A stretch of DNA of 64,000 nt, from assembly GCA_963824775.1 (NCBI GenBank), contig CAWGQF010000011.1:60389-124388 (forward strand), written 5' to 3'. This stretch comes from an uncultured Actinomycetes bacterium. GTDB lineage: Bacteria > Actinomycetota > Thermoleophilia > Gaiellales > Gaiellaceae. Position numbers and translations under genes: made by a program. Positions 6,081 through 18,507 of the stretch are shown here, one piece after another. The notes below the pieces were generated by a model, which was not told where the DNA came from, did no database searches, and was given only the letters and a program-made list of their open reading frames with translations. Within the stretch, counting starts at the first letter, position 1; every line of letters begins with the position of its first letter.

Positions 6081-7451
6081 CTAGTTCCAGGGGTAGGGCG
6101 AGCGCGAGACGGCGTGCGTGACGCCGGCCTCGTACCGCGAGAGGCGAAACGGGTCGAGGCGGCTCTCGCCGCCGCCCACGATGTCGGCGGCGACGAGCTT
6201 GCCGAGGCCGATCATCTTGAACCCGTGGTTCGAGTCGAGGACCGCGTAGGCGTTGGGGCGGACGAAGTCGACGACCGGGTAGTTGTCGGGCGTGAACGCG
6301 CCGACGCCGCCGTGCGGGTCTGCGTGCCAGTCGCGTCCCTTGCCGCGGAAGCGCTCGTGCGCCCACGCGAGGCCCGCCGTGAAGTAGTCGGTGAACTCGT
6401 CGCCGACGACGTGCTCCGGGTTCGCGTGCCCGTACGGCTCGAGGTCGACCTCGGTGCCGAGCCGGATCGGCACGCCGCCGCCCTGCACGCCGTATCCCCG
6501 CCGGCCGATCTTGTAGTAGATGCCCCAGGGCCCGTCCTCGATCACGTGCCCGTCCCGGTCGGACGCGAGCGGCACGACGTGGTCGAGGTGGACGACCGGC
6601 GGCTCGCGGCCGGCTCGGTCGACGAAGTCGACGTCGTCCAGCCAGAAGTCGCCCTCCTGGAGCTTCCAGTAGGTCGCGATCGGCAGCAGCTCGTGGTCGC
6701 CGTTCGCTTCGACCCGAGGCGCGTCCCCGATCGGTGAGGTCGGCTTCTCCTTCTGCCGCACACGAACCTCCTCCGGCAGATCGAGCATCCGCCAGACGTG
6801 CCCGCTCCAGGGACCCGGCGCGGCGACGAAGAGCTCCGTGTCGACCGGGCCCGCGGTCGTCTCCACCGCTGCCACCTCGCCGTCCCGCAGGTCGATCCCG
6901 GTCACCTCGACGCCCTCGTAGATCCGGACGCCGAGCGAGCGCGCAAGCCGGGCCAGGTTCTCGACCGTGCGCCCGGTCTCCGCCCAGCCGCCCTGGTGCT
7001 CGTGGAGGACAGCCTCGATCCCATCGCCCGACCAGTCCGGAAAGATCGCGCGCATGTGCTCGCGGCACCGTTCCTCGCCGAGGACGACCTCGGAGCGGTA
7101 GCCGATGTCGGCCTGCCGCCGCTGGATCGCGACGCAGTCCTCGGCCTGCTGCTCGGGAACCGCGGCGATGTAGCCGACCGGGTGGTAGCCGAATCCCGCC
7201 GGGTCGGACTCGAAGAGCTCGACCGACACCCGGATGACCTCGGCCATCGGCGGCGAGAAGTAGAAGTTCCGGACGACGCCGCAGGCGATGCCGGAGGCGC
7301 CGGCGCCGATCCGGCTCTTCTCGACCACGATCACGTCCCGGCCGGAACCCTGCCCACGCTCGGTGAGCTCGAGGGCCAGGTGGTACGCCGTCGAAAGGCC
7401 GTGGACGCCGCCGCCGAGGACGATGTAATGGGAGGCGGACGGGAGCGCCAC
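6081..7451 (-). CDS. FAD-dependent oxidoreductase (DAO/glycine-oxidase superfamily), substrate unknown.
   Basis: Intact 456-aa ORF with N-terminal dinucleotide motif IVLGGGVHGLSTAYHLA. GTG 7451 lies 3 nt after the stop of the upstream small ORF. Confidence 0.85.
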   Translation of the reverse strand: MALPSASHYIVLGGGVHGLSTAYHLALELTERGQGSGRDVIVVEKSRIGAGASGIACGVVRNFYFSPPMAEVIRVSVELFESDPAGFGYHPVGYIAAVPEQQAEDCVAIQRRQADIGYRSEVVLGEERCREHMRAIFPDWSGDGIEAVLHEHQGGWAETGRTVENLARLARSLGVRIYEGVEVTGIDLRDGEVAAVETTAGPVDTELFVAAPGPWSGHVWRMLDLPEEVRVRQKEKPTSPIGDAPRVEANGDHELLPIATYWKLQEGDFWLDDVDFVDRAGREPPVVHLDHVVPLASDRDGHVIEDGPWGIYYKIGRRGYGVQGGGVPIRLGTEVDLEPYGHANPEHVVGDEFTDYFTAGLAWAHERFRGKGRDWHADPHGGVGAFTPDNYPVVDFVRPNAYAVLDSNHGFKMIGLGKLVAADIVGGGESRLDPFRLSRYEAGVTHAVSRSPYPWN

Positions 7452-10092: not shown

Positions 10093-11028
10093 TTACCGTT
10101 GCCACACGAGCACCTCGCCCTCGTAGGGATCCCAGGTCTCGATCTCGCGGTCGACGACGGCCCGGATCGCGATCTCCTCGGAGGCGAGGGCGACGAGGTC
10201 GTCCGACTCGTAGAGGACGAGCGGCTTCGCGGCCATGTGATCCTTGGCCACGCCCAGGGCCTCCGCGGTGACGCACATGTAGGTGAAGACGCCGTCGAGC
10301 TCCTCGAGGCTCGCGCGCATCGCGTCCTCGAGCGTGGCGCCGTCGCTCATCTTCTCGGCGAGGTAGACGGCGATGATCTCCGAGTCGCACTCGGACTGGA
10401 ACCGGTGTCCGGAGCGCTCGAGGCGCCGCTTCCACTGGAAGTAGTTCGTCAGCTGGCCGTTGTGCACGACGGCGACGTCGTAGAAGGGGTACGCCCAGTA
10501 CGGGTGGGCGCCGGAGATGTCGACGTCCGACTCGGTCGCCATCCGCGCGTGGCCGATCGCGTGCGTGCCCGAGAAGTCGCCCAGACCGTACTGCTCCGCG
10601 ACCGACTCGGCGTCGCCGAGGTCCTTGACGATCTCGAGCGAGTTGCCGAGCGAGAGCACCTCGCAGCCGGCGACGTCCTCGACGTAGTCGGCGAGCGCCT
10701 TCGCGTCGCCGTCGTACTCGAGCGTGACCCGGTACGCGTACTCGGTCTCCTCTTCCATCGCGGTCACCCGGGCACCGAGTGTGCGGAGCCGCGTCTCGAC
10801 CTCGCGCTGGTGCCGGCGCAGCCGGTCGGCGAAGTCGAAGTCGCGCGGGTCGTTGGCGTCCGCCAGCTTGTAGCGCATGACGACCTGGTTCGACGCCGGG
10901 CCGTAGAGGGCGTAGCCGGTCGAGTCGGGACCGCGGTGCTTCATCGACTGGAGCATCCGGGTCATGTCGCGCCCGACGGGGTGGGGCTCCGCCCCGTTCC
11001 GGTAGATGATTCCCGCGATCCCGCACAT
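10093..11028 (-). CDS. mgsA: Class-II glutamine amidotransferase (N-methylglutamate synthase subunit A type).
   Basis: The N-terminal MCGIAG nucleophile Cys follows the start directly. Intact 311-aa ORF. Confidence 0.85.
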   Translation of the reverse strand: MCGIAGIIYRNGAEPHPVGRDMTRMLQSMKHRGPDSTGYALYGPASNQVVMRYKLADANDPRDFDFADRLRRHQREVETRLRTLGARVTAMEEETEYAYRVTLEYDGDAKALADYVEDVAGCEVLSLGNSLEIVKDLGDAESVAEQYGLGDFSGTHAIGHARMATESDVDISGAHPYWAYPFYDVAVVHNGQLTNYFQWKRRLERSGHRFQSECDSEIIAVYLAEKMSDGATLEDAMRASLEELDGVFTYMCVTAEALGVAKDHMAAKPLVLYESDDLVALASEEIAIRAVVDREIETWDPYEGEVLVWQR

Positions 11029-11040
11029 AGCTAGGTGGTT

Positions 11041-12487
11041 CTAGGGGAGCACGTCGAGATACCGCTCGCGCTCCCAGTCGGTCACCGCCGCCAGGAAGCG
11101 CTGCCACTCGTCGCGCTTGTAGTGCATATACACGTCGTAGAGGCGGCCGGGGAGCGCGGACCGCACGACCTCGTCCTCCTCGAGCGCGTCGAGCGCCTCG
11201 CCGAGGTGGTCGGGCACCCGTGGGATCTCGGTCCCCTCGGCCAGCACGTCGTAGACGTTCCGCTGCTGCGGCGGGCCCGGGTCGAGCTTGCGCTTGACAC
11301 CGTCGAGCCCTGCGCGGAGGAGCGCCGCCTGCGTCAGGTACGGGTTGCAGGCGGAGTCGACGGCGCGGAACTCGAAGCGTCCCCCGCTCGCGACGCGGAC
11401 GAGCGTCGTCCGGTTCTGCCAGCCATAGTCCTTGTAGATCGGCGCCCAGAAGCCGAAGTCCCAGAAGCGCTTGTAGGAGTTCACGGTCGAGGCGGTGATC
11501 GCGCAGAGGGCGCGATAGTGGTCGAGGATCCCGCCCATGAACTGGAGCCCGAGCTTCGAGAGCTTGGCCGGACCGTCCTCGTCGTAGAAGACGTTCGTCC
11601 CTTCCTCGTCCACGAGCGTGAAGTGGTGGTGGGCGCCGTTCGCGGAGACGCCGGTGAACGGCTTCGGCATGAAGGTCGCGAGGACGTCGTGCTTGCGCGC
11701 CACGGCCGCGCAGATCTGCCGGTAGGTGGAGAGATTGTCCGCGGTGCGAACTGCGCGGTCGAAGAGGAAGTTGAGCTCGAGCTGCCCGGGCGAGTCCTCG
11801 TGGTCACCGTACGTGGGCGAGATCCCTAGCCGCTCGCCGTAGTCGATCACGTCGAGGATGATCGGCCGGAGCTCCTCGAACTGGTTGATGTGGTAGCACC
11901 ACGGCTTCGTCAGGCCCTCGGCCTCGTTCGGGTCGTCCGTGCGGTTCATCCACATCATCTCGGGCTCGATCCCGCAGAGGAACGTGTAGCCGAGCTCCTG
12001 CTCGACCTCGTTCGTCGCCCGCTTCAGGTTCTGGCGCGGGTCGGACTCGAGGAGCGCCGCCGCTCTCCGTGTCGTAGCAGTCGCAGTAGACACGCGCGAC
12101 CCGTTCGTCCCACGGGAGCTGCGCGAACGTGTCGAGGTCGGCGATCGCGGCGAGCTCCGACTCCTCCGGTCCGAATCCGATGTAGCGGTCCCGGCTGTCG
12201 ACGAAGAGGTCGGCGGTCGCGCCGTAGACGAGCTGGTAGCCGTTCTCGGCCACGCGCTCCCACTGCGTGGCGGCGACGCCCTTCCCGTTCACGTGCCCGG
12301 AGACGGACACCTGCTGGAAGAAGATGTACTTGATCCCGCGCTCGTTGATCAGCTTGCGGATCTCCTGGATCTTCTGCCGGCGGCCGGGGTCGTTCCTGGC
12401 CTCGTCGAGCATGGGGAAGGGGTCGGGGATGCCGCCCTTGGCGAGGACGGTCTGCACCTCGGTGGGACGCCGTTCGACGACAGCCAT
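11041..12487 (-). CDS. gmaS: Glutamine synthetase family protein, by context gamma-glutamylmethylamide synthetase. One +1 frame break near 12060.
   Basis: ORFs 11804..12565 (from ATG 12487) and 11041..12093 are collinear. GS catalytic-domain sequence is present: GDHEDSPGQLELNF, NGAHHHF, NSYKRF. It is the first gene of the mgsABC operon. Confidence 0.8.
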
Positions 12488-12563
12488 GCACGCGCTCCTT
12501 TCGCTTTCGTCCAGCCTAAACGCTCGGCGCACGTTTCCACCCTGAGCGCCGTACGATGCGGGC

Positions 12564-12950
12564 ATGACCCGCTACCTGCACACGATGTACCGGATCACGG
12601 ATCCCGAGAAGAGCCGCGAGTTCTACGAGGCGCTCGGGTTCGAGTTCCGCCGCGACCTGCCGATCGAGCGCGACGGCCGGCTCGAGGCGACCAACTACTT
12701 CTTCGGGATCCCCGGCCAGGAGGAGGAGCTCGAGCTCACGTTCAACCACGACGGCCGCAGGTACGACCTGGGCACGGGCTACGGCCACGTCGCGCTCGCG
12801 GTCGACGACCTCGACGGGACGCTGGCGCGCCTGAAGGAGCAGGGCATCGAGCCGGAGCGCGAGCCGTATCGCGTGCGCGAAGGCGGCTCCCGGCTCTGCT
12901 TCGTCAACGACCCGGACGGCTACCGGGTTGAGCTGATCGAGTCGGCTTAG
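12564..12950 (+). CDS. gloA: Lactoylglutathione lyase / glyoxalase I (VOC family).
   Basis: Intact 128 aa: HTMYRITDPEKSREFY, GYGHVALAVDDLD, CFVNDPDGYRVELIESA stop. Confidence 0.85.
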   Translation: MTRYLHTMYRITDPEKSREFYEALGFEFRRDLPIERDGRLEATNYFFGIPGQEEELELTFNHDGRRYDLGTGYGHVALAVDDLDGTLARLKEQGIEPEREPYRVREGGSRLCFVNDPDGYRVELIESA

Positions 12951-13048
12951 TCGGCGGCGACATTGCGAGGAGTTGTGCTCCCTGTCACGTCGCGAATAGC
13001 ATCGCCGGCTCAGCCACTGCCGCCCGTCCAGTCCAGAGGAGGCCCCGA

Positions 13049-13429
13049 ATGCTGAGAGAATTCCGCGATTTTCTCTTACGAGGCAACATCATCGAACTCG
13101 CCGTCGCGTTCGTCCTCGGGGTGGCTTTCGGGGCACTCATCACCTCATTCGTCGACAACCTCTTGATGCCCGTCATCGCGATGATCATCGGGAAGCCAGA
13201 CTTCCGCGAGCTGACCTTCACGATCAACGACGCCGTCTTCCGTTACGGCGCCTTCCTCACCGACCTGCTCGCATTCGTTGCAGTCGCTGCTGCCGTCTTC
13301 TTCTTCGTAGTCAAGCCGGTGAACGCCCTGACGAACCGAATTCGGTCACCGGTCGAGGAGGGCCTGCCAGACGATGAGCGCCGCCACCAGGAGCTCCTTG
13401 CTGCACTCGGCCAGATTCGCGCGTCATAG
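13049..13429 (+). CDS. mscL: Large-conductance mechanosensitive channel.
   Basis: Textbook MscL N-terminus MLREFRDFLLRGNIIELAVAFVLGVAFG plus a second TM helix. G+C is visibly lower; a hand count of the first 120 nt gives about 54%. Confidence 0.9.
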   Translation: MLREFRDFLLRGNIIELAVAFVLGVAFGALITSFVDNLLMPVIAMIIGKPDFRELTFTINDAVFRYGAFLTDLLAFVAVAAAVFFFVVKPVNALTNRIRSPVEEGLPDDERRHQELLAALGQIRAS

Positions 13430-13477
13430 AGTGCGTTCGGCCGGATGCGAAGACGAAGTCAGTCGACCGTCAGCGCC

Positions 13478-13513
13478 CTGGACGGCTATCGCGCGGAGCT
13501 GATCGAGCCGTGA
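13478..13513 (+). repeat. VOC-gene 3'-end remnant, copy 2 (..LDGYRAELIEP stop).
   Basis: Core 13481-13507 GACGGCTATCGCGCGGAGCTGATCGAG matches the gloA end (12915-12941) at 23 of 27 positions and keeps the reading frame and a stop. Confidence 0.8.
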
Positions 13514-13530
13514 GTCGACTTGCGACCCTA

Positions 13531-13575
13531 CGGTTCGTAGACGGCTACCGGGTTGAGCTCATCGAGCGCGAGTGA
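13531..13575 (+). repeat. VOC-gene 3'-end remnant, copy 3 (..RFVDGYRVELIERE stop).
   Basis: Core 13540-13566 GACGGCTACCGGGTTGAGCTCATCGAG differs from the gloA end at 1 of 27 positions. Confidence 0.85.
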
Positions 13576-13594
13576 ATCAGCTCCCGCCGCGACG

Positions 13595-14038
13595 ATGAGC
13601 TCGGCGTCCGAGCCGCTTGACGGCGCGATCGTTGCGCGCGTTCGTGCGAGCTTCGCCCGTCAAGGAGCGATGGCGACTCTCTGCGCCGAACTTGCCCAAG
13701 TCGCCACCGGGCGTGTCGCCATCGCGCTGCCGATCGAGCCGCGCCTCTCCCAGCAGGACGGCTTCCTCCACGCAGGTGTCGTCGTGGCCGCGCTCGACAG
13801 CGCCTGCGGCTACGCGGCGTTGACGCTGATGCCGGACGACGCGGAGGTCTTGACCGTCGAGCTCAAGACCAACCTCCTCGCGCCGGCCGGCGGCGACAGC
13901 CTCGTCGCCGAAGGCGAGGTCGTCCGTGCCGGCCGCACGCTGACCGTCTGCCGCGGCGAGGCGTTCGCGGAGGAGGGCGACGACCGCGTCCACGTCGCAA
14001 CGATGCTGGCGACGATGGTCCGCCGGCGCACAGGATGA
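13595..14038 (+). CDS. PaaI/hotdog-fold thioesterase.
   Basis: ..PRLSQQDGFLHAGVVVAALDSACGYAALTL..VVRAGRTLTVCRGEAF.. is a typical PaaI-type hotdog sequence. ATG 13595 is the first ATG inside ORF 13553..14038. Confidence 0.8.
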   Translation: MSSASEPLDGAIVARVRASFARQGAMATLCAELAQVATGRVAIALPIEPRLSQQDGFLHAGVVVAALDSACGYAALTLMPDDAEVLTVELKTNLLAPAGGDSLVAEGEVVRAGRTLTVCRGEAFAEEGDDRVHVATMLATMVRRRTG

Positions 14039-14045
14039 ACCGCGA

Positions 14046-14107
14046 GTGAATCAGCTTGTCGTCGTACGATTCCCAGACGGCTATCGCGTCAGCTCATCGA
14101 GAAGTAG
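14046..14107 (+). repeat. VOC-gene 3'-end remnant, copy 4 (VNQLVVVRFPDGYRV.LIEK stop, with a 1-nt gap).
   Basis: Core 14076-14101 GACGGCTATCGCGTCAGCTCATCGAG is the 27-mer minus one base. A further 30 nt upstream still reads as a VOC beta-strand. Confidence 0.8.
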
Positions 14108-14293
14108 CCCGCGGCTCGCGGGCCGTTCCACGACGTGTCCGATCAGCGGAGATTCTTGCCCCTTGAAGTCGGCTCCGGCGAACGTTCCGCGAACCGTCCT
14201 CGCAGGACGGGGCGCATGCTGCCGCGCTTGACGGGTGGGGATCTGACCCACTGTCGCGCCCCGCCCGGGCGACGTCAAGCGCTCCCGCGCTTC

Positions 14294-14315
14294 GTCAAGG
14301 CGAGGTCGCCTTGAC
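14294..14315 (+). promoter_or_regulatory. Perfect 9-bp stem / 4-nt loop hairpin (GTCAAGGCG-AGGT-CGCCTTGAC) upstream of the amidohydrolase gene.
   Basis: Read directly from the sequence. A second inverted pair, GCGCTTGAC (14224-14232) / GTCAAGCGC (14274-14282), lies just upstream. Confidence 0.3.
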
Positions 14316-14429
14316 ACCACGGGGGTCAGGCGAAAGGATCGTCAGACCGTCTGACGACGCCGCGGCGGAGTGACTGCGCCGTTGAGCGAGGCGCGGCCTC
14401 CCGTGCAATCGCCGGAAAGGAAGGCCAGC

Positions 14430-16187
14430 ATGAGCGCCGAGGATCCCCGCGCTGGTGGGGCAGAGTCGACCGACGAGGCGATCGAAGAAGGGATTTCCCG
14501 TAGAAGGTTCATTCTCGGGGGCGCCGCCGCAGGCGCGGCCCTCGGCCTGGGGGGCCCGGGCGGAGTTGCCGCAGCGCGGGGATCCGATCGGCCGGCGACT
14601 CCGCGCGTACATCCGTCGGACGACGAGCTCGTCCTCTACAACGGCAAGGTCAGGACGATGGACGACGAAGACAGCGTCGTCTCGGGCGTCGCGATTCGCG
14701 GAGGGCGGTTCGTCGAGGTTGGCAAGTTCGGTCGCCGGGGCCGCAACGCAGTAGACCTCAAGGGGCGCACCGTCATCCCTGGCCTGATTGAGAGCTGCGA
14801 CCACATCGTCAGCTTCGGCAACTACCGGCCCGGCTACCACACGGTGCTTGAGAACGCGACCTCGATCGCGGAGATCCAGGCCATCCTGGCTGCGCGCCGC
14901 GCGGATGTCCCTCCGGGTGAGTGGATCACCTCGCTCGGTGCCTGGACGGCAGAAACGATGTTCGCCGAGCACCGACTGCCGAACCGAGCGGAGCTCGACG
15001 CGGCCGTGCCGGACCGTCCGGTGCTCCTCTACCAGACGACCGTTGGGCCGGCTTCGGTGAACAGCCTCGGCAAGGCGTACTTCGAGTCAGCCTCGATTCC
15101 GGTCGTGGTCGGCGCCGACGGCATGATCGCCTCGGGCATCCAGTCGACGACTGCCCTCTATCTTCTGCGTCAGACCCAGACGCTGGAGCAGCGGCGGCGA
15201 TCCACGCAGGAAGCATGGGGGTATTGCGCCAGCGTCGGGCTGACCTCTCATATAGACCAGCAAGGGATCGCAAGCCCGCCGAGCCCGCAATACGCGCTCG
15301 GCAGCGCGGTTCTCACGGAGCCGAGCCTCAACCGCAACCAAACGCTCTTTCACTTCGACCACTTCCGCCACTACGACACGTGGTGGGGGCTCCACCGAGA
15401 GGGCAAGACGACCGTGCGAATGCAGGCCGACTTCGTCATCGACACCCTCGAGGTTCTCAACGAACGCATCAAGAACCAGCTCCCCTTCTTCGGCGACGAC
15501 ATGCTGTCGACGCACGCGGTCCACTTCCAGCCCGCCGGGGGCACCACCAATCCGATCTGGCTCGAGGGCTACCGGCTCATGGCCCGGTTTGGCTGGCGAG
15601 GCAGGTCGGGCGCCGGGACAGTGGCCCTGATGGAGAGCGCGATCAGCGGCTTCGAGCAGATCAGCACCGAGTTCGACATCACCGACCTCCGCTGGACGCT
15701 CCACCGCATGGCCGGAACCACGCATGCACAGCTCGACCGGCTGAAGGCACTCGGCGGCACCGTGAACGTCGTTTCCAGGTCGTATCCCCTGCGGGCGGCG
15801 CAGGCCCCGACAGCGCCGTTTCGGACCGTGGTCGACAACGGCATCCATGCCGGCATCCACATGGACGGAGGCCACATCGCGACGCTCAACCCGTGGATCA
15901 CGATTTACTTCGCCGTGACGGGTCGCAATGCGCTCGGCGAGCTGGTCAACCCCGGCCAGCAAATCACGCGCCAGGAGGCGCTTCGTCTCTTCACCCGCGG
16001 AAACGCCTACCAGATGAGAATGGAGGACAAGCTCGGCTCGATCGAGATCGGCAAGCTCGCCGACCTCGTCGTCCTCGACAAGGACTACCTAGCCGTGAGC
16101 GACGAGAACCTCAAGAGGATCCGCTCCGTTCTCACCATCGTGGACGGGAAGGTCATCCACGACTCCGGAGCTCTCAAGGTTCGCTAG
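14430..16187 (+). CDS. Tat-exported amidohydrolase-family (YtcJ-like) metal-dependent hydrolase.
   Basis: Twin-arginine signal SRRRFILGGAAAGAALG. An SD-like GGAAAGGAAGG precedes ATG 14430. PGLIESCDH and HMDGGH occupy the usual metal-ligand positions. Intact about 585 aa. Confidence 0.7.
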   Translation: MSAEDPRAGGAESTDEAIEEGISRRRFILGGAAAGAALGLGGPGGVAAARGSDRPATPRVHPSDDELVLYNGKVRTMDDEDSVVSGVAIRGGRFVEVGKFGRRGRNAVDLKGRTVIPGLIESCDHIVSFGNYRPGYHTVLENATSIAEIQAILAARRADVPPGEWITSLGAWTAETMFAEHRLPNRAELDAAVPDRPVLLYQTTVGPASVNSLGKAYFESASIPVVVGADGMIASGIQSTTALYLLRQTQTLEQRRRSTQEAWGYCASVGLTSHIDQQGIASPPSPQYALGSAVLTEPSLNRNQTLFHFDHFRHYDTWWGLHREGKTTVRMQADFVIDTLEVLNERIKNQLPFFGDDMLSTHAVHFQPAGGTTNPIWLEGYRLMARFGWRGRSGAGTVALMESAISGFEQISTEFDITDLRWTLHRMAGTTHAQLDRLKALGGTVNVVSRSYPLRAAQAPTAPFRTVVDNGIHAGIHMDGGHIATLNPWITIYFAVTGRNALGELVNPGQQITRQEALRLFTRGNAYQMRMEDKLGSIEIGKLADLVVLDKDYLAVSDENLKRIRSVLTIVDGKVIHDSGALKVR

Positions 16188-16501
16188 CACGGAGGTACAT
16201 CGACCAGCCGGAGCGAGACGAAGCATCTGGGGTACGGCGAGGGCGCTCCCAAGCTGACCCGCTCCGTGACGCAGTCGCAGGCTTCCCCCGCCCAACCACG
16301 GTGATCCGCGAGTCACCGGACGGAATCGAGCCCAGGCGACGCTGCACGCGCTTGCGGTGAGAGAGGACTGGGCGCCCCGACGCGAGGCCCGTGGCACGGA
16401 ACCGCGGTGGTGCTTGCCTAGGCCGAGTGCGACCGCACGTGGGAGGGGATCTGGCCGCGATCGGCAGGTGCAGGCCCCGCCGGTGTCAGCGTGTCTGGTT
16501 G

Positions 16502-16527
16502 CGAGTCGGGGCGGGCCCCGCGACTCG
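16502..16527 (+). terminator. Terminator-like GC-rich hairpin followed by a T-rich run (..ACATTTTCGTGTT).
   Basis: CGAGTCGGGG-loop-CCCCGCGACTCG gives 7+3 bp with one bulge. It lies about 310 nt after the amidohydrolase stop and directly abuts VOC remnant copy 5. Confidence 0.3.
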
Positions 16528-16580
16528 ACATTTTCGTGTTCCCAGACGGCTATCGGGTTGAGCTCATCGAGCGGGCCTAG
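16521..16580 (+). repeat. VOC-gene 3'-end remnant, copy 5 (RLDIFVFPDGYRVELIERA stop).
   Basis: Core 16545-16571 GACGGCTATCGGGTTGAGCTCATCGAG differs from the gloA end at 2 of 27 positions, both at codon third positions. Upstream codons parallel gloA ..RLCFVNDP... Confidence 0.85.
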
Positions 16581-16619: not shown

Positions 16620-17283
16620 ATGACGTCGGGGCCGCCGCTCTACGGCCCGCAGCAATCGCGCTTCGCGCGCTATCTCGAGTGGCGCGAGCTTCGCTCCCCG
16701 GATCCGGTGGCGCGTGAGCTCCGACGGCGGTTGATCGCGGGGCTGCGCGGGCAAGTGCTCGAGCTCGGCTGCGGGGACGGGCGCGCGTTCGAGTCCTACC
16801 GGCCGGGCGTGACTCGGGTGCTGGCAGTCGAGCCCGACCCCACGGCGCGGGCGGCTGCCGAGGAGCGTGTGCGTGCCGCCGCGGTTCCGATCGAGGTCGT
16901 GGACGGCGACGCATCGACGCTACCGGCGGAGGACGGAGCCTTCGACGCAGCGGTCGTGGTGTGGGTTCTCTGCAGCGTGCCCGACCTGGCCGCGGCGCTC
17001 GCGGAGCTACGTCGTGTGCTCGCGCCCGGCGGCGAGCTCCCGCTTCTACGAGCACGTCCGGTCCGAGCGAGCTGCGTTTCGTGGGGTTCAGCGCGCCGTC
17101 GACGGTGTGTTCTGGACGCGGGCGCTCGGCGGCTGTCGCACGACGAGGGACACCTTGGGCGCGATCGTCGGGGCGGGGTTCGAGATCGACGCGCTCGAAC
17201 GGGGGTTCCACTCGTCCTCCGTGCTCACCATCACGTCGGCGCCGTACGTACTGGGAATCGCCCGCCGTCCGGGCACACAGTGA
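16620..17283 (+). CDS. Class I SAM-dependent methyltransferase. One +1 frame break near 17040.
   Basis: SAM motif I VLELGCGDGR and ..LAPGGEL. The C-terminal part (RFYEHVRSE..FEIDALERGF) continues in ORF 16867..17283. Confidence 0.8.
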
Positions 17284-18198: not shown

Positions 18199-18507
18199 AT
18201 GGCACGAACGGCGACCACCGCGTGGGGAATGACCACGATCGTCGAGGAGGTCACGCTCCCGCAACGGGCCGGTGACAGGCGATTCACGTCGCTCGTTCAG
18301 CTGCTCGAGGACGGAGGGGGAAAGCAGTACGTCCGCTTCGCCTATGCGACCGAAGGCACGGCCCGCCGAGGGCCGGTCACGCTCCGCCGGGAGGACCTGA
18401 AGCGACTCGCCTCGGCGCTCGCGCACAACTCCGGGCTCGCTTCAGCACTGGCGCTCGAGTCGGCGGCGCCACCGCGAGGGGGTGGTCGGCGGGCGAGCGC
18501 GAAGTGA
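18199..18507 (+). CDS. Hypothetical protein.
   Basis: 102-aa ORF with non-repetitive composition (..EEVTLPQRAGDRRFTSLVQLLEDGGGKQYVRFAYATEG..). I do not recognise a family. Confidence 0.4.
   Translation: MARTATTAWGMTTIVEEVTLPQRAGDRRFTSLVQLLEDGGGKQYVRFAYATEGTARRGPVTLRREDLKRLASALAHNSGLASALALESAAPPRGGGRRASAK

Follow-up and report, generated by a model that had tools for sequence, protein, structure and literature searches.

A glyoxalase gene end as a probable attachment site for large serine recombinases and small recombinase-less units in soil Thermoleophilia

Downstream of gloA, a glyoxalase I gene of the VOC family, a 64-kb stretch of DNA (the whole of which is termed the window) carries further copies of the last codons of that gene, and mscL, a gene for a PaaI-type thioesterase and an amidohydrolase gene lie between these copies (Table 1). 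The gene ends (tails) and the sequences adjoining them were compared with the loci of relatives, which are labelled with L-numbers, and the gloA 3' end is interpreted below as the probable attachment site of a family of large serine recombinases (LSRs).

Repeated gloA ends in the window

The window was searched with the pattern GACGGCTAYCGSGYKGAGCTSATCGAG, which describes the 27-nt core of the gloA end, and every match (12915, 13481, 13540 and 16545) lay on the + strand; no match arose in 100 dinucleotide-preserving shuffles of the window. A further copy at 14076-14101 reads GACGGCTATCGCGT-CAGCTCATCGAG and is 1 base short, so that the five same-orientation copies listed in the first-pass annotation amount to four full matches and one base-short copy. 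The missing base of this copy (copy 4) may reflect real decay or an indel of the assembly, and the latter could apply because the window has frameshifts in two neighbouring genes. Copies 1, 3 and 5 vary solely at two third codon positions (TAC/TAT and CTG/CTC), and the stop context is individual to each core copy; both observations had been made in the first-pass annotation and were confirmed from the sequence. Copies 3 and 1 are 96% identical over the 24 nt from the GA of the Asp118 codon onwards and 29% identical in the preceding 24 nt, and the crossover at copy 1 would lie at this GA.

The contents of the intervals were compared with Pfam. The mscL, PaaI thioesterase and amidohydrolase genes named earlier were recovered (the Amidohydro_3 open reading frame (ORF) is given as 14370-16187 in the Pfam annotation), and the twin-arginine signal ascribed to the amidohydrolase was weak, with a TAT_signal match below the Pfam cut-off. 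The supposedly empty 32 nt that separate copies 2 and 3 proved to be a conserved sequence, termed an arm here, that recurs before copy 4 and in remnants of other genomes: positions 13510-13539 are homologous to 14047-14075 and to arms of L096 and L104. The 16-nt direct repeat CGCGAGTGAATCAGCT that flanks the PaaI segment consists of the end of tail 3 and the start of the arm, and deletion of the PaaI segment together with one copy of CGCGAGTGAATCAGCT would yield a tail-arm-tail doublet resembling copies 2 and 3. Two hairpins were noted, GCCCGCGGCTCGCGGGC at 14107-14123 with a perfect 7-bp stem directly after tail 4, and a second, G+C-rich one at 16503-16526 that partly coincides with the copy 5 arm; either may act as a terminator or as a binding site.

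Table 1. Features of the gloA array in the window and of its right flank
Feature	Coordinates	Strand	Remarks
gloA, glyoxalase I / VOC family, 128 aa, target	12564..12950	+	frame intact; Pfam Glyoxalase 7e-20
junction 1, copy 1	12915..12950	+	GA at 12915-12916 in Asp118 codon; tail GACGGCTACCGGGTTGAGCTGATCGAGTCGGCTTAG, the present gene end
mscL, 126 aa, cargo 1	13049..13429	+	Pfam MscL 5e-31
copy 2	13481..13513	+	degenerate tail ..LDGYRAELIEP, stop; inside the mscL unit
arm ('P arm') before copy 3	13510..13539	+	heptamer GTCGACT at 13514-13520, -26 to -20 from GA
copy 3	13540..13575	+	tail ending in its own stop, ..DGYRVELIERE, stop
16-nt direct repeat CGCGAGTGAATCAGCT, perfect	13567..13582 and 14041-14056	+	brackets the PaaI segment; read from the sequence
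PaaI/4HBT-type thioesterase, cargo 2	13595..14038	+	Pfam 4HBT 8e-15; start codon uncertain, ORF from 13553
second repeat copy and arm before copy 4	14041..14075	+	heptamer ATCAGCT at 14050-14056, -26 to -20
copy 4	14076..14107	+	tail GACGGCTATCGCGT-CAGCTCATCGAGAAGTAG, one base short; hairpin GCCCGCGGCTCGCGGGC next
amidohydrolase (Amidohydro_3), cargo 3	14430..16187	+	Pfam 5e-49; ATG at 14430 preceded by GGAAAGGAAGG
arm before copy 5	16519..16544	+	GCGACTCGACATTTTCGTGTTCCCA; type AACTCGAC(G/A)-N14
copy 5	16545..16580	+	probable ancestral gloA tail, now 3.6 kb downstream, beside the native methyltransferase
S-adenosylmethionine (SAM) methyltransferase	16620..17283	+	native downstream neighbour of gloA in the sub-lineage; right edge of the repeat-bounded array
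conserved hypothetical gene	18199..18507	+	then purQ/purS/purC on minus strand; right anchor of the hotspot in 42 loci

Frame changes were found on both sides of the array. The reading frame of the methyltransferase shifts near 17040, with the L007 protein matched in one frame by 140 N-terminal residues and in another by 80 C-terminal residues, and a glutamine-synthetase-like gene (11041-12565, minus strand) consists of two overlapping frames split near 12093; the two are either pseudogenes or the product of indel errors of the kind typical for long-read assemblies. These frameshifts, and the origin of the relatives' loci and probably of the window from metagenome assemblies, bear on the question whether the array is itself an artefact, namely a chimeric join of strain variants at the shared 27-mer in a metagenome-assembled genome. 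The probability of such an artefact is close to nil: the same architecture was found in independent assemblies that stem from several projects and were built with differing methods (MFD, SMAG, JGI, ENA, Logan), the copies and arms differ, so that they are not collapsed or expanded copies of one sequence, and the 27-nt repeat is below the k-mer length of the k141-labelled assemblies.

G+C content at third codon positions (GC3) was 0.78–0.89 in the cassette genes (mscL 0.78) against 0.96 in gloA and 0.94–0.96 in the genes upstream; because purQ and the conserved hypothetical gene are likewise low (about 0.80–0.81), the cassette values give only weak support for a foreign origin. The window contained neither a tRNA gene nor a match to any Rfam family, and a tRNA or tmRNA attachment site was thereby ruled out. 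As the first-pass annotation had stated for recombinases, no LSR was detectable in the 64 kb, nor was a primase or an Xis-like gene, and relaxed tblastn searches of the window for relics of LSR, primase or HTH genes returned noise only.

A common break point and occupied sites in relatives

The gloA protein was used to scan one genome per species, which gave 80 loci with gloA orthologues at 71–88% identity, all of them in metagenome-assembled genomes of Gaiellaceae or of other Thermoleophilia and Actinomycetota. At 42 loci (window included) gloA, the conserved hypothetical gene and purQ-purS-purC were found in the same order and orientation, and the distance from the gloA stop codon to the conserved hypothetical gene ran from 147 nt (L056) and 159 nt (L013) up to 8.9 kb (L044, L079, L032), with 5.2 kb in the window; the interval behind gloA is variable among relatives, as had been anticipated for a site of serial insertion. 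In L023 and L038 the hyp-purQ-purC block is inverted and flanks gloA on the side opposite to that seen in the window and most relatives, possibly through an inversion one of whose end points fell within the hotspot. Homologues of the other two cargo genes were also looked for among the 80 relatives, and none was found for the PaaI thioesterase within 10 kb of gloA or for the amidohydrolase near gloA.

One to three extra copies of the species' own gloA end were present downstream of gloA in 11 of the 80 species. For determination of the break point, 18 remnants from 10 genomes (window included) were each compared with the gloA of the same genome. Identity was 0.40 over the 24 nt before GA and 0.81 after it, and the per-position identity rose from 0.44 at -1 to 1.00 at +1 and +2, so that the remnants of 10 genomes share their start nucleotide. 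A gloA copy cut at that GA was found in six further species (L019, L022, L045, L065, L073 (twice) and L080), where the truncated copies are followed by an arm with the conserved sequence GAY-RGnTAGCTTCnnACATTGAGTT. Altogether 17 species have junctions at one nucleotide, the GA of the Asp118 codon, which divides the protein end between DPD and GYRVELIE; two junctions among the 31 tabulated (L096 and the second site of L104) have GG in place of GA. In LSR systems both partner sites share an identical crossover dinucleotide and the junctions are hybrids of the two sites, with which the invariant GA of the 18 remnants and the switch of homology at GA agree.

Exchange by homology, with no dedicated recombinase, could also place repeated tails behind gloA, either through a RecA-dependent single crossover (Campbell) or through a double crossover in the gloA and purQ flanks, the tails then being shared homology. 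Several observations fit such exchange: tail DNA is highly conserved among gloA orthologues, the repeat in L041 runs for about 85 nt and thus beyond the stop codon, and the conserved flanks on both sides would permit whole arrays to be swapped. However, variable left ends would be predicted, and the 18 remnants and the truncated gloA copies of six species all break at GA; moreover, 27 nt is very short for RecA.

Empty and occupied sites were then aligned. In the empty L033 the gloA tail is followed directly by a glutathione S-transferase (GST) gene, and in L018 and L036 an insert (0.9 kb or 1.75 kb) and an arm separate gloA with its new tail from the old tail, behind which the same GST gene lies; L033 aligns exactly with both. 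The tail remnant of L040 stands about 130 nt before the conserved hypothetical gene, which is near the gap size of the empty loci. In the window, copy 5 is separated from the methyltransferase by 39 nt, and in L019 an intact gloA is separated from the same methyltransferase by 18 nt with a similar linker; this match between the two junctions argues that copy 5 is the ancestral gene end, shifted by 3.6 kb and still beside its native neighbour.

The mscL unit was found in a second context. In a soil population (L095-L106) with the gene order dapB-mscL-cyclase ... hyp-purQ, MscL is about 90% identical to that of the window, and the mscL homologues are placed between tail remnants downstream of dapB. 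When the window was aligned with L104, L106 and L096, homology started exactly at the GA of the degenerate tail left of mscL, continued through mscL, a counterpart of copy 2 and the arm, and ended in a tail equivalent to copy 3; the left neighbour of the unit is gloA in the one case and dapB in the other, and the right neighbour is PaaI or the cyclase. It follows from this alignment that the 32 nt between copies 2 and 3 would belong to the mscL unit as its arm, with copy 2 as an internal relic, and the counterpart of copy 2 in L104 is degenerate or partly deleted. The unit thus occurs in another population with different neighbours and with homology from GA. The contigs L095-L106 represent one population with a fixed arrangement, and no presence/absence difference was found within it.

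Units at the gloA site were about 0.35–2.8 kb in size and often held one gene, and L023, L032 and L079 contained two to three tail remnants each. LSR-less units were recorded in the window and in L018, L023, L032, L036, L041, L047 and L079; the genes of the window units all run in the same direction, and gene orientation is mixed among the units of relatives (L032, L023). Recurrent cargo at gloA junctions included adenylate/guanylate cyclase-STAND/TPR genes of 640–1170 aa (L023, L068, L073, L080, L095/L096/L104, L107). In L047, a gene for an Arr rifampicin ADP-ribosyltransferase (6338-6814; Pfam Arr-ms, 5e-40) is the sole gene of a 530-bp unit that extends from gloA to a tail remnant and is a resistance gene in cassette form.

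The same arrays could in principle result from decay in place of tandem gloA/VOC paralogues, with no insertion mechanism, and this had been named as the scenario that would speak against serial insertion. Tandem gloA copies do exist in five relatives (L019, L022, L039, L073, L080), and weak gloA-like coding (SRLxxxxFx) is kept upstream of the core in window copies 3-5. However, the upstream copy ends precisely at GA and leads into a palindromic arm of recombinase type in L019, L022, L073 and L080, which are four of the five; in L039 homology also stops at the Asp118 codon and no recognisable arm follows. Random decay is not expected to end 18 remnants at one nucleotide, the genes between the remnants are unrelated to VOC proteins and depend on the species, and the empty/occupied pairs are clean, so that decay in place is highly improbable. 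The two gloA copies of L073, and likewise those of L039, belong to different clades (MTRYLHTM... and MA(T/S)FLHTM...).

Serine recombinases and site arms at the junctions

An LSR was found at the site in L040, where a protein of 496 aa (10457-11947, minus strand; Resolvase 1.5e-28, Recombinase 5.7e-14, Zn_ribbon_recom 4e-10) is encoded between gloA and an arm followed directly by a tail remnant; its motif YIRVSRR includes the expected catalytic serine, and the same three domains are recorded for the 120 listed homologues. For identification of further cases, metagenome and protein databases were searched with the L040 LSR. The layout of gloA, LSR, arm and tail was also found in L081 and L107 and partially in L086 (where the contig ends within the remnant), and in L108 the LSR is followed by an arm and a gloA tail inside the hyp-purQ hotspot, which gives five loci with gloA-type tails at LSR junctions (L040, L081, L086, L107, L108). 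In L110 the LSR has tails on both sides that are not gloA-type, and in L068 a fragment of an LSR gene lies near gloA. The family comprises 760 protein clusters at E<=1e-60; its nearest solved relatives (9dxh, 9iu2 and 3bvp; E 1e-8 to 6e-10) are phage or prophage serine integrases, and no relatives of the LSR were found in a viral contig collection. About 20–140 nt past the LSR stop codon, about 120 nt of non-coding sequence (cagaaacacgaaaagccgggcgcgcaagcaa ... ctacacgcccggc) are conserved among the elements of L082-L085 and L087.

Arms on the left of GA fall in conserved families that are unrelated to the cargo. The commonest LSR-side arm reads CATCAAYGT-N12-A directly before GA, and it forms inverted repeats round GA with the arm of the truncated gloA copies (13.3 of 24 matches, compared with 6.3 +/- 1.2 and a maximum of 9.6 in the column-shuffled control). 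LSR attachment sites measure about 40–50 bp and consist of imperfect inverted repeats round a central dinucleotide; the arms have the shape expected of an LSR attP, and the symmetry centre coincides with the break point that was found independently from the remnants. The arm type AACTCGAC(G/A)-N14 before GA adjoins the LSR in L108 and L110, LSR-less units in L032 (3×) and copy 5 of the window. A heptamer RTCRRCT at -26, a motif defined post hoc, is common to window copies 3 and 4, L096, two L032 arms and the L110 arm. Positions of both -26 and -21 occur for the heptamer among the arms, these motifs again being defined post hoc; the 5-bp offset resembles the half-site geometry that distinguishes attP from attB of LSRs, and is taken as a lead only. 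A permissive regular expression for the arm motifs was not informative, since background matches of the TCGACG type swamp the result in G+C-rich DNA.

For exchange by homology, the conserved arm families left of GA have no explanation, and neither do LSR genes exactly at the junctions with arms symmetric about GA, which makes it unlikely as the source of the arrays; the loss of an LSR between two tails, giving structures like L019, could nonetheless be homologous recombination. A platform run by another type of recombinase encoded elsewhere (integron-like or Xer/dif-like), with the LSR elements as mere cargo, would account for the small single-gene units with their end module of about 60 nt, for the common direction in the window and for the missing adjacent recombinase. 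This is very unlikely: a heuristic regular expression (not a profile search) revealed no tyrosine-recombinase box motif in either the window or the 80 loci, the arm-and-tail modules folded no better than shuffles on either strand (z -0.46 to +0.84), gene orientation is mixed as noted above, and the LSR is the only recombinase that recurs at the junctions. By eye, the G+C-rich tail shows no likeness to dif sites, in which XerC and XerD arms enclose a 6–8-bp spacer within 28 bp.

Complete elements were sought round the LSR genes. Upstream of the LSR-adjacent gloA of L040 (7036-9548) lie genes for an HTH_17 protein (Xis-like) and a D5_N primase-helicase and a small ORF; the same small ORF and an AAA_25 or primase gene follow the LSR in L082, L083 and L087, and a Prim-Pol primase gene, the small ORF, gloA and the LSR stand in line on the P0126 contig and in L107 (8062-8706). 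The left end of the gloA-carrying LSR element was not found within the available sequence. We infer from this gene order that the LSR-adjacent gloA is probably a spare copy of the target carried by the element, and that the host copy would be the truncated one with the palindromic arm. The LSR family also occurs head-to-head with a gene for a two-domain VOC protein of about 250 aa (L084, L087, L090-L092; also L085, L108/L109), and beyond the end of this gene lie an LSR-type arm and then a remnant GACGGCAACAACATCGAG of the tail of that gene type, cut at GAC GGC. GAC GGC within the conserved VOC motif DPDG therefore appears to serve the family as its site, and the two-domain VOC gene would be a second target.

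Proposed mechanism and relation to known systems

The findings are consistent with the gloA 3' end being an LSR attachment site at which recombinase-less units accrete in tandem and restore the gene end, a reading to which we assign a probability of roughly 0.7. The chromosomal site would belong to an LSR family common in soil Thermoleophilia, with strand exchange at the GA of Asp118 (GAC GGC encodes Asp-Gly in the conserved end DPDGYRVELIE). Incoming DNA would carry its own gloA-like tail to the right of GA, which would leave the gene intact and regenerate the site at the gene end, and its other end, the 'P arm', would become joined to the previous tail. Serial insertion by this route would have stacked three recombinase-less units, with mscL, the PaaI thioesterase and the amidohydrolase as cargo and the youngest unit adjoining gloA. 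The predicted order is the gloA body; tail 1, mscL, relic tail 2 and arm; tail 3, PaaI and arm; tail 4, amidohydrolase and arm; and the original tail 5 with the methyltransferase. The claim of the first-pass annotation that units were inserted serially and site-specifically, each supplying a new gloA end, was supported by the variable gap, the GA boundary, the empty sites and the mscL unit. The units of the window would be non-autonomous relics whose movement, if any, needs an LSR encoded elsewhere; they may have been mobilised in trans, brought en bloc by homologous exchange of the conserved flanks, or be fixed relics.

Several observations weigh against attachment and accretion by this LSR family. 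With no LSR, primase or Xis-like gene in the window, no recombinase is tied to the array inside this genome. The gloA of L040 seems to belong to the larger HTH_17/D5_N element, and the full elements seem bigger than the single-gene units and built unlike them. Most arms of LSR-less units, including those of window copies 2-4, are unlike the commonest LSR-side arm, and the heptamer statistics are post hoc. LSRs normally pair attP with attB only, and a site at such a junction would consist of a P-type arm and a gloA tail. The 16-nt repeat round the PaaI segment suggests a second mode of entry, at the junction of tail and arm instead of at GA, and the inserts of L006, L007 and L054 have no tail remnant at all. 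Finally, dyad symmetry of the chromosomal gloA site itself is weak (10.9 of 25 matches, a value equalled by 17% of other gene positions and thus not significant).

A further step would be that the arm-and-tail modules of about 60 nt are working recombination sites of a gene-cassette system driven by a serine recombinase, an integron analogue among the Actinomycetota of soils. The LSR family would then capture single genes (mscL, thioesterase, amidohydrolase, arr, two-component systems, toxins), stack them behind a housekeeping gene and reshuffle them in trans. This extension is doubtful, and it would be a notable finding if true.

The arrangement was compared with described systems. The ssrA islands of Dehalococcoides are associated with the CcrB-like serine recombinase DsiB (McMurdie et al. 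2011, PMC3146451); they target the tmRNA gene with a repeat of 20 bp, measure from kb to tens of kb and possess an integration module of six genes, two of them for serine recombinases, and islands without this module have been read as cis-mobilisable units gained by accretion (PMC3146451). As in these islands, a serine recombinase, the 3' end of a single-copy housekeeping gene and tandem units bounded by short repeats of that end occur together at gloA; a conserved non-target motif stands just upstream of each repeat, the equivalent of the P arm here, some units have no recombinase, and the ssrA region is likewise variable between strains. The gloA system differs in that a protein-coding end must keep its frame, in its single LSR, in one-gene units of 0.35–2.8 kb and in some elements with a whole spare target gene.

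Staphylococcal cassette chromosome (SCC) elements, including SCCmec, insert at rlmH (orfX) of staphylococci by means of CcrAB or CcrC and are 20–60 kb in size. They share with the gloA units the large serine recombinases, an attB in the last codons, a restored gene end and composites separated by direct repeats, recombinase-less pseudo-SCC elements among them. Recombinase clade, host phylum and target gene are different, and in place of the CcrA/CcrB pair or CcrC at rlmH, a single LSR of another clade was found at gloA, with no two-recombinase pair. SCC elements are also summarised in the paper on the ssrA islands (PMC3146451). The gloA system thus works in the manner of SCCmec and the ssrA islands and belongs to neither family, since its recombinase clade and target are others and a second recombinase is lacking. 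The proposed accretion at gloA resembles that of streptococcal cis-mobilisable elements (CIMEs) in that insertion regenerates a usable att site and so gives tandem recombinase-less units flanked by att. CIMEs accrete beside integrative and conjugative elements (ICEs) or integrative and mobilisable elements (IMEs), mostly through tyrosine recombinases, at tRNA or other gene ends and with much larger units. With regard to tandem accretion in general, repeat-bounded serial units with an intact target, presence/absence with a displaced old end, and LSR-bearing and LSR-less units at the same site were all observed. The three-domain architecture of the LSR and the att arms as imperfect inverted repeats round a central dinucleotide are shared with phage serine integrases (SPbeta SprA/YokA, TP901-1, Bxb1-type), from which the gloA elements differ in having no phage genes and HTH_17 plus D5_N or a Prim-Pol primase instead of virion genes.

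Literature searches returned no account of integration at a glyoxalase gene end, nor of LSR elements from Gaiellales. Soils are rich in Gaiellaceae and related Thermoleophilia, which are almost uncultured, and to our knowledge their mobile DNA is essentially undescribed. New features are the in-frame coding end of a VOC-superfamily gene as target, the host group, and very small units with modules of about 60 nt next to elements that seem to carry a spare target; the probable recombinase, an LSR found at the site in relatives, is also new here. The GA of Asp118 in gloA is a defined and easily searched integration hotspot, and the candidate recombinase family is very common in soil metagenomes. 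Both site arms can apparently be read from the junctions, which would make the system directly testable and could yield new site-specific integrases. The rifampicin ADP-ribosyltransferase of a related unit means that the gloA site can hold resistance genes.

The single-gene units are small for serine-recombinase islands and raise the question of cassette-style capture outside integrons. Genes of the arr type are also known as integron cassettes, and the likeness to integron arrays extends to small, mostly single-gene, promoter-poor units in series, end modules of about 60 nt and accessory cargo including the arr of L047. In integrons an IntI tyrosine recombinase stands beside attI at the array head, and attC sites form imperfect hairpins as single-stranded DNA. 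No integron head was seen at gloA, where the upstream genes are metabolic and the heuristic regular expression returned no tyrosine-recombinase motif. Unlike integrons, the gloA arrays have no IntI, no attI and no folded attC, their genes are of mixed orientation in relatives, and the module at the end of each unit is the end of a housekeeping gene.

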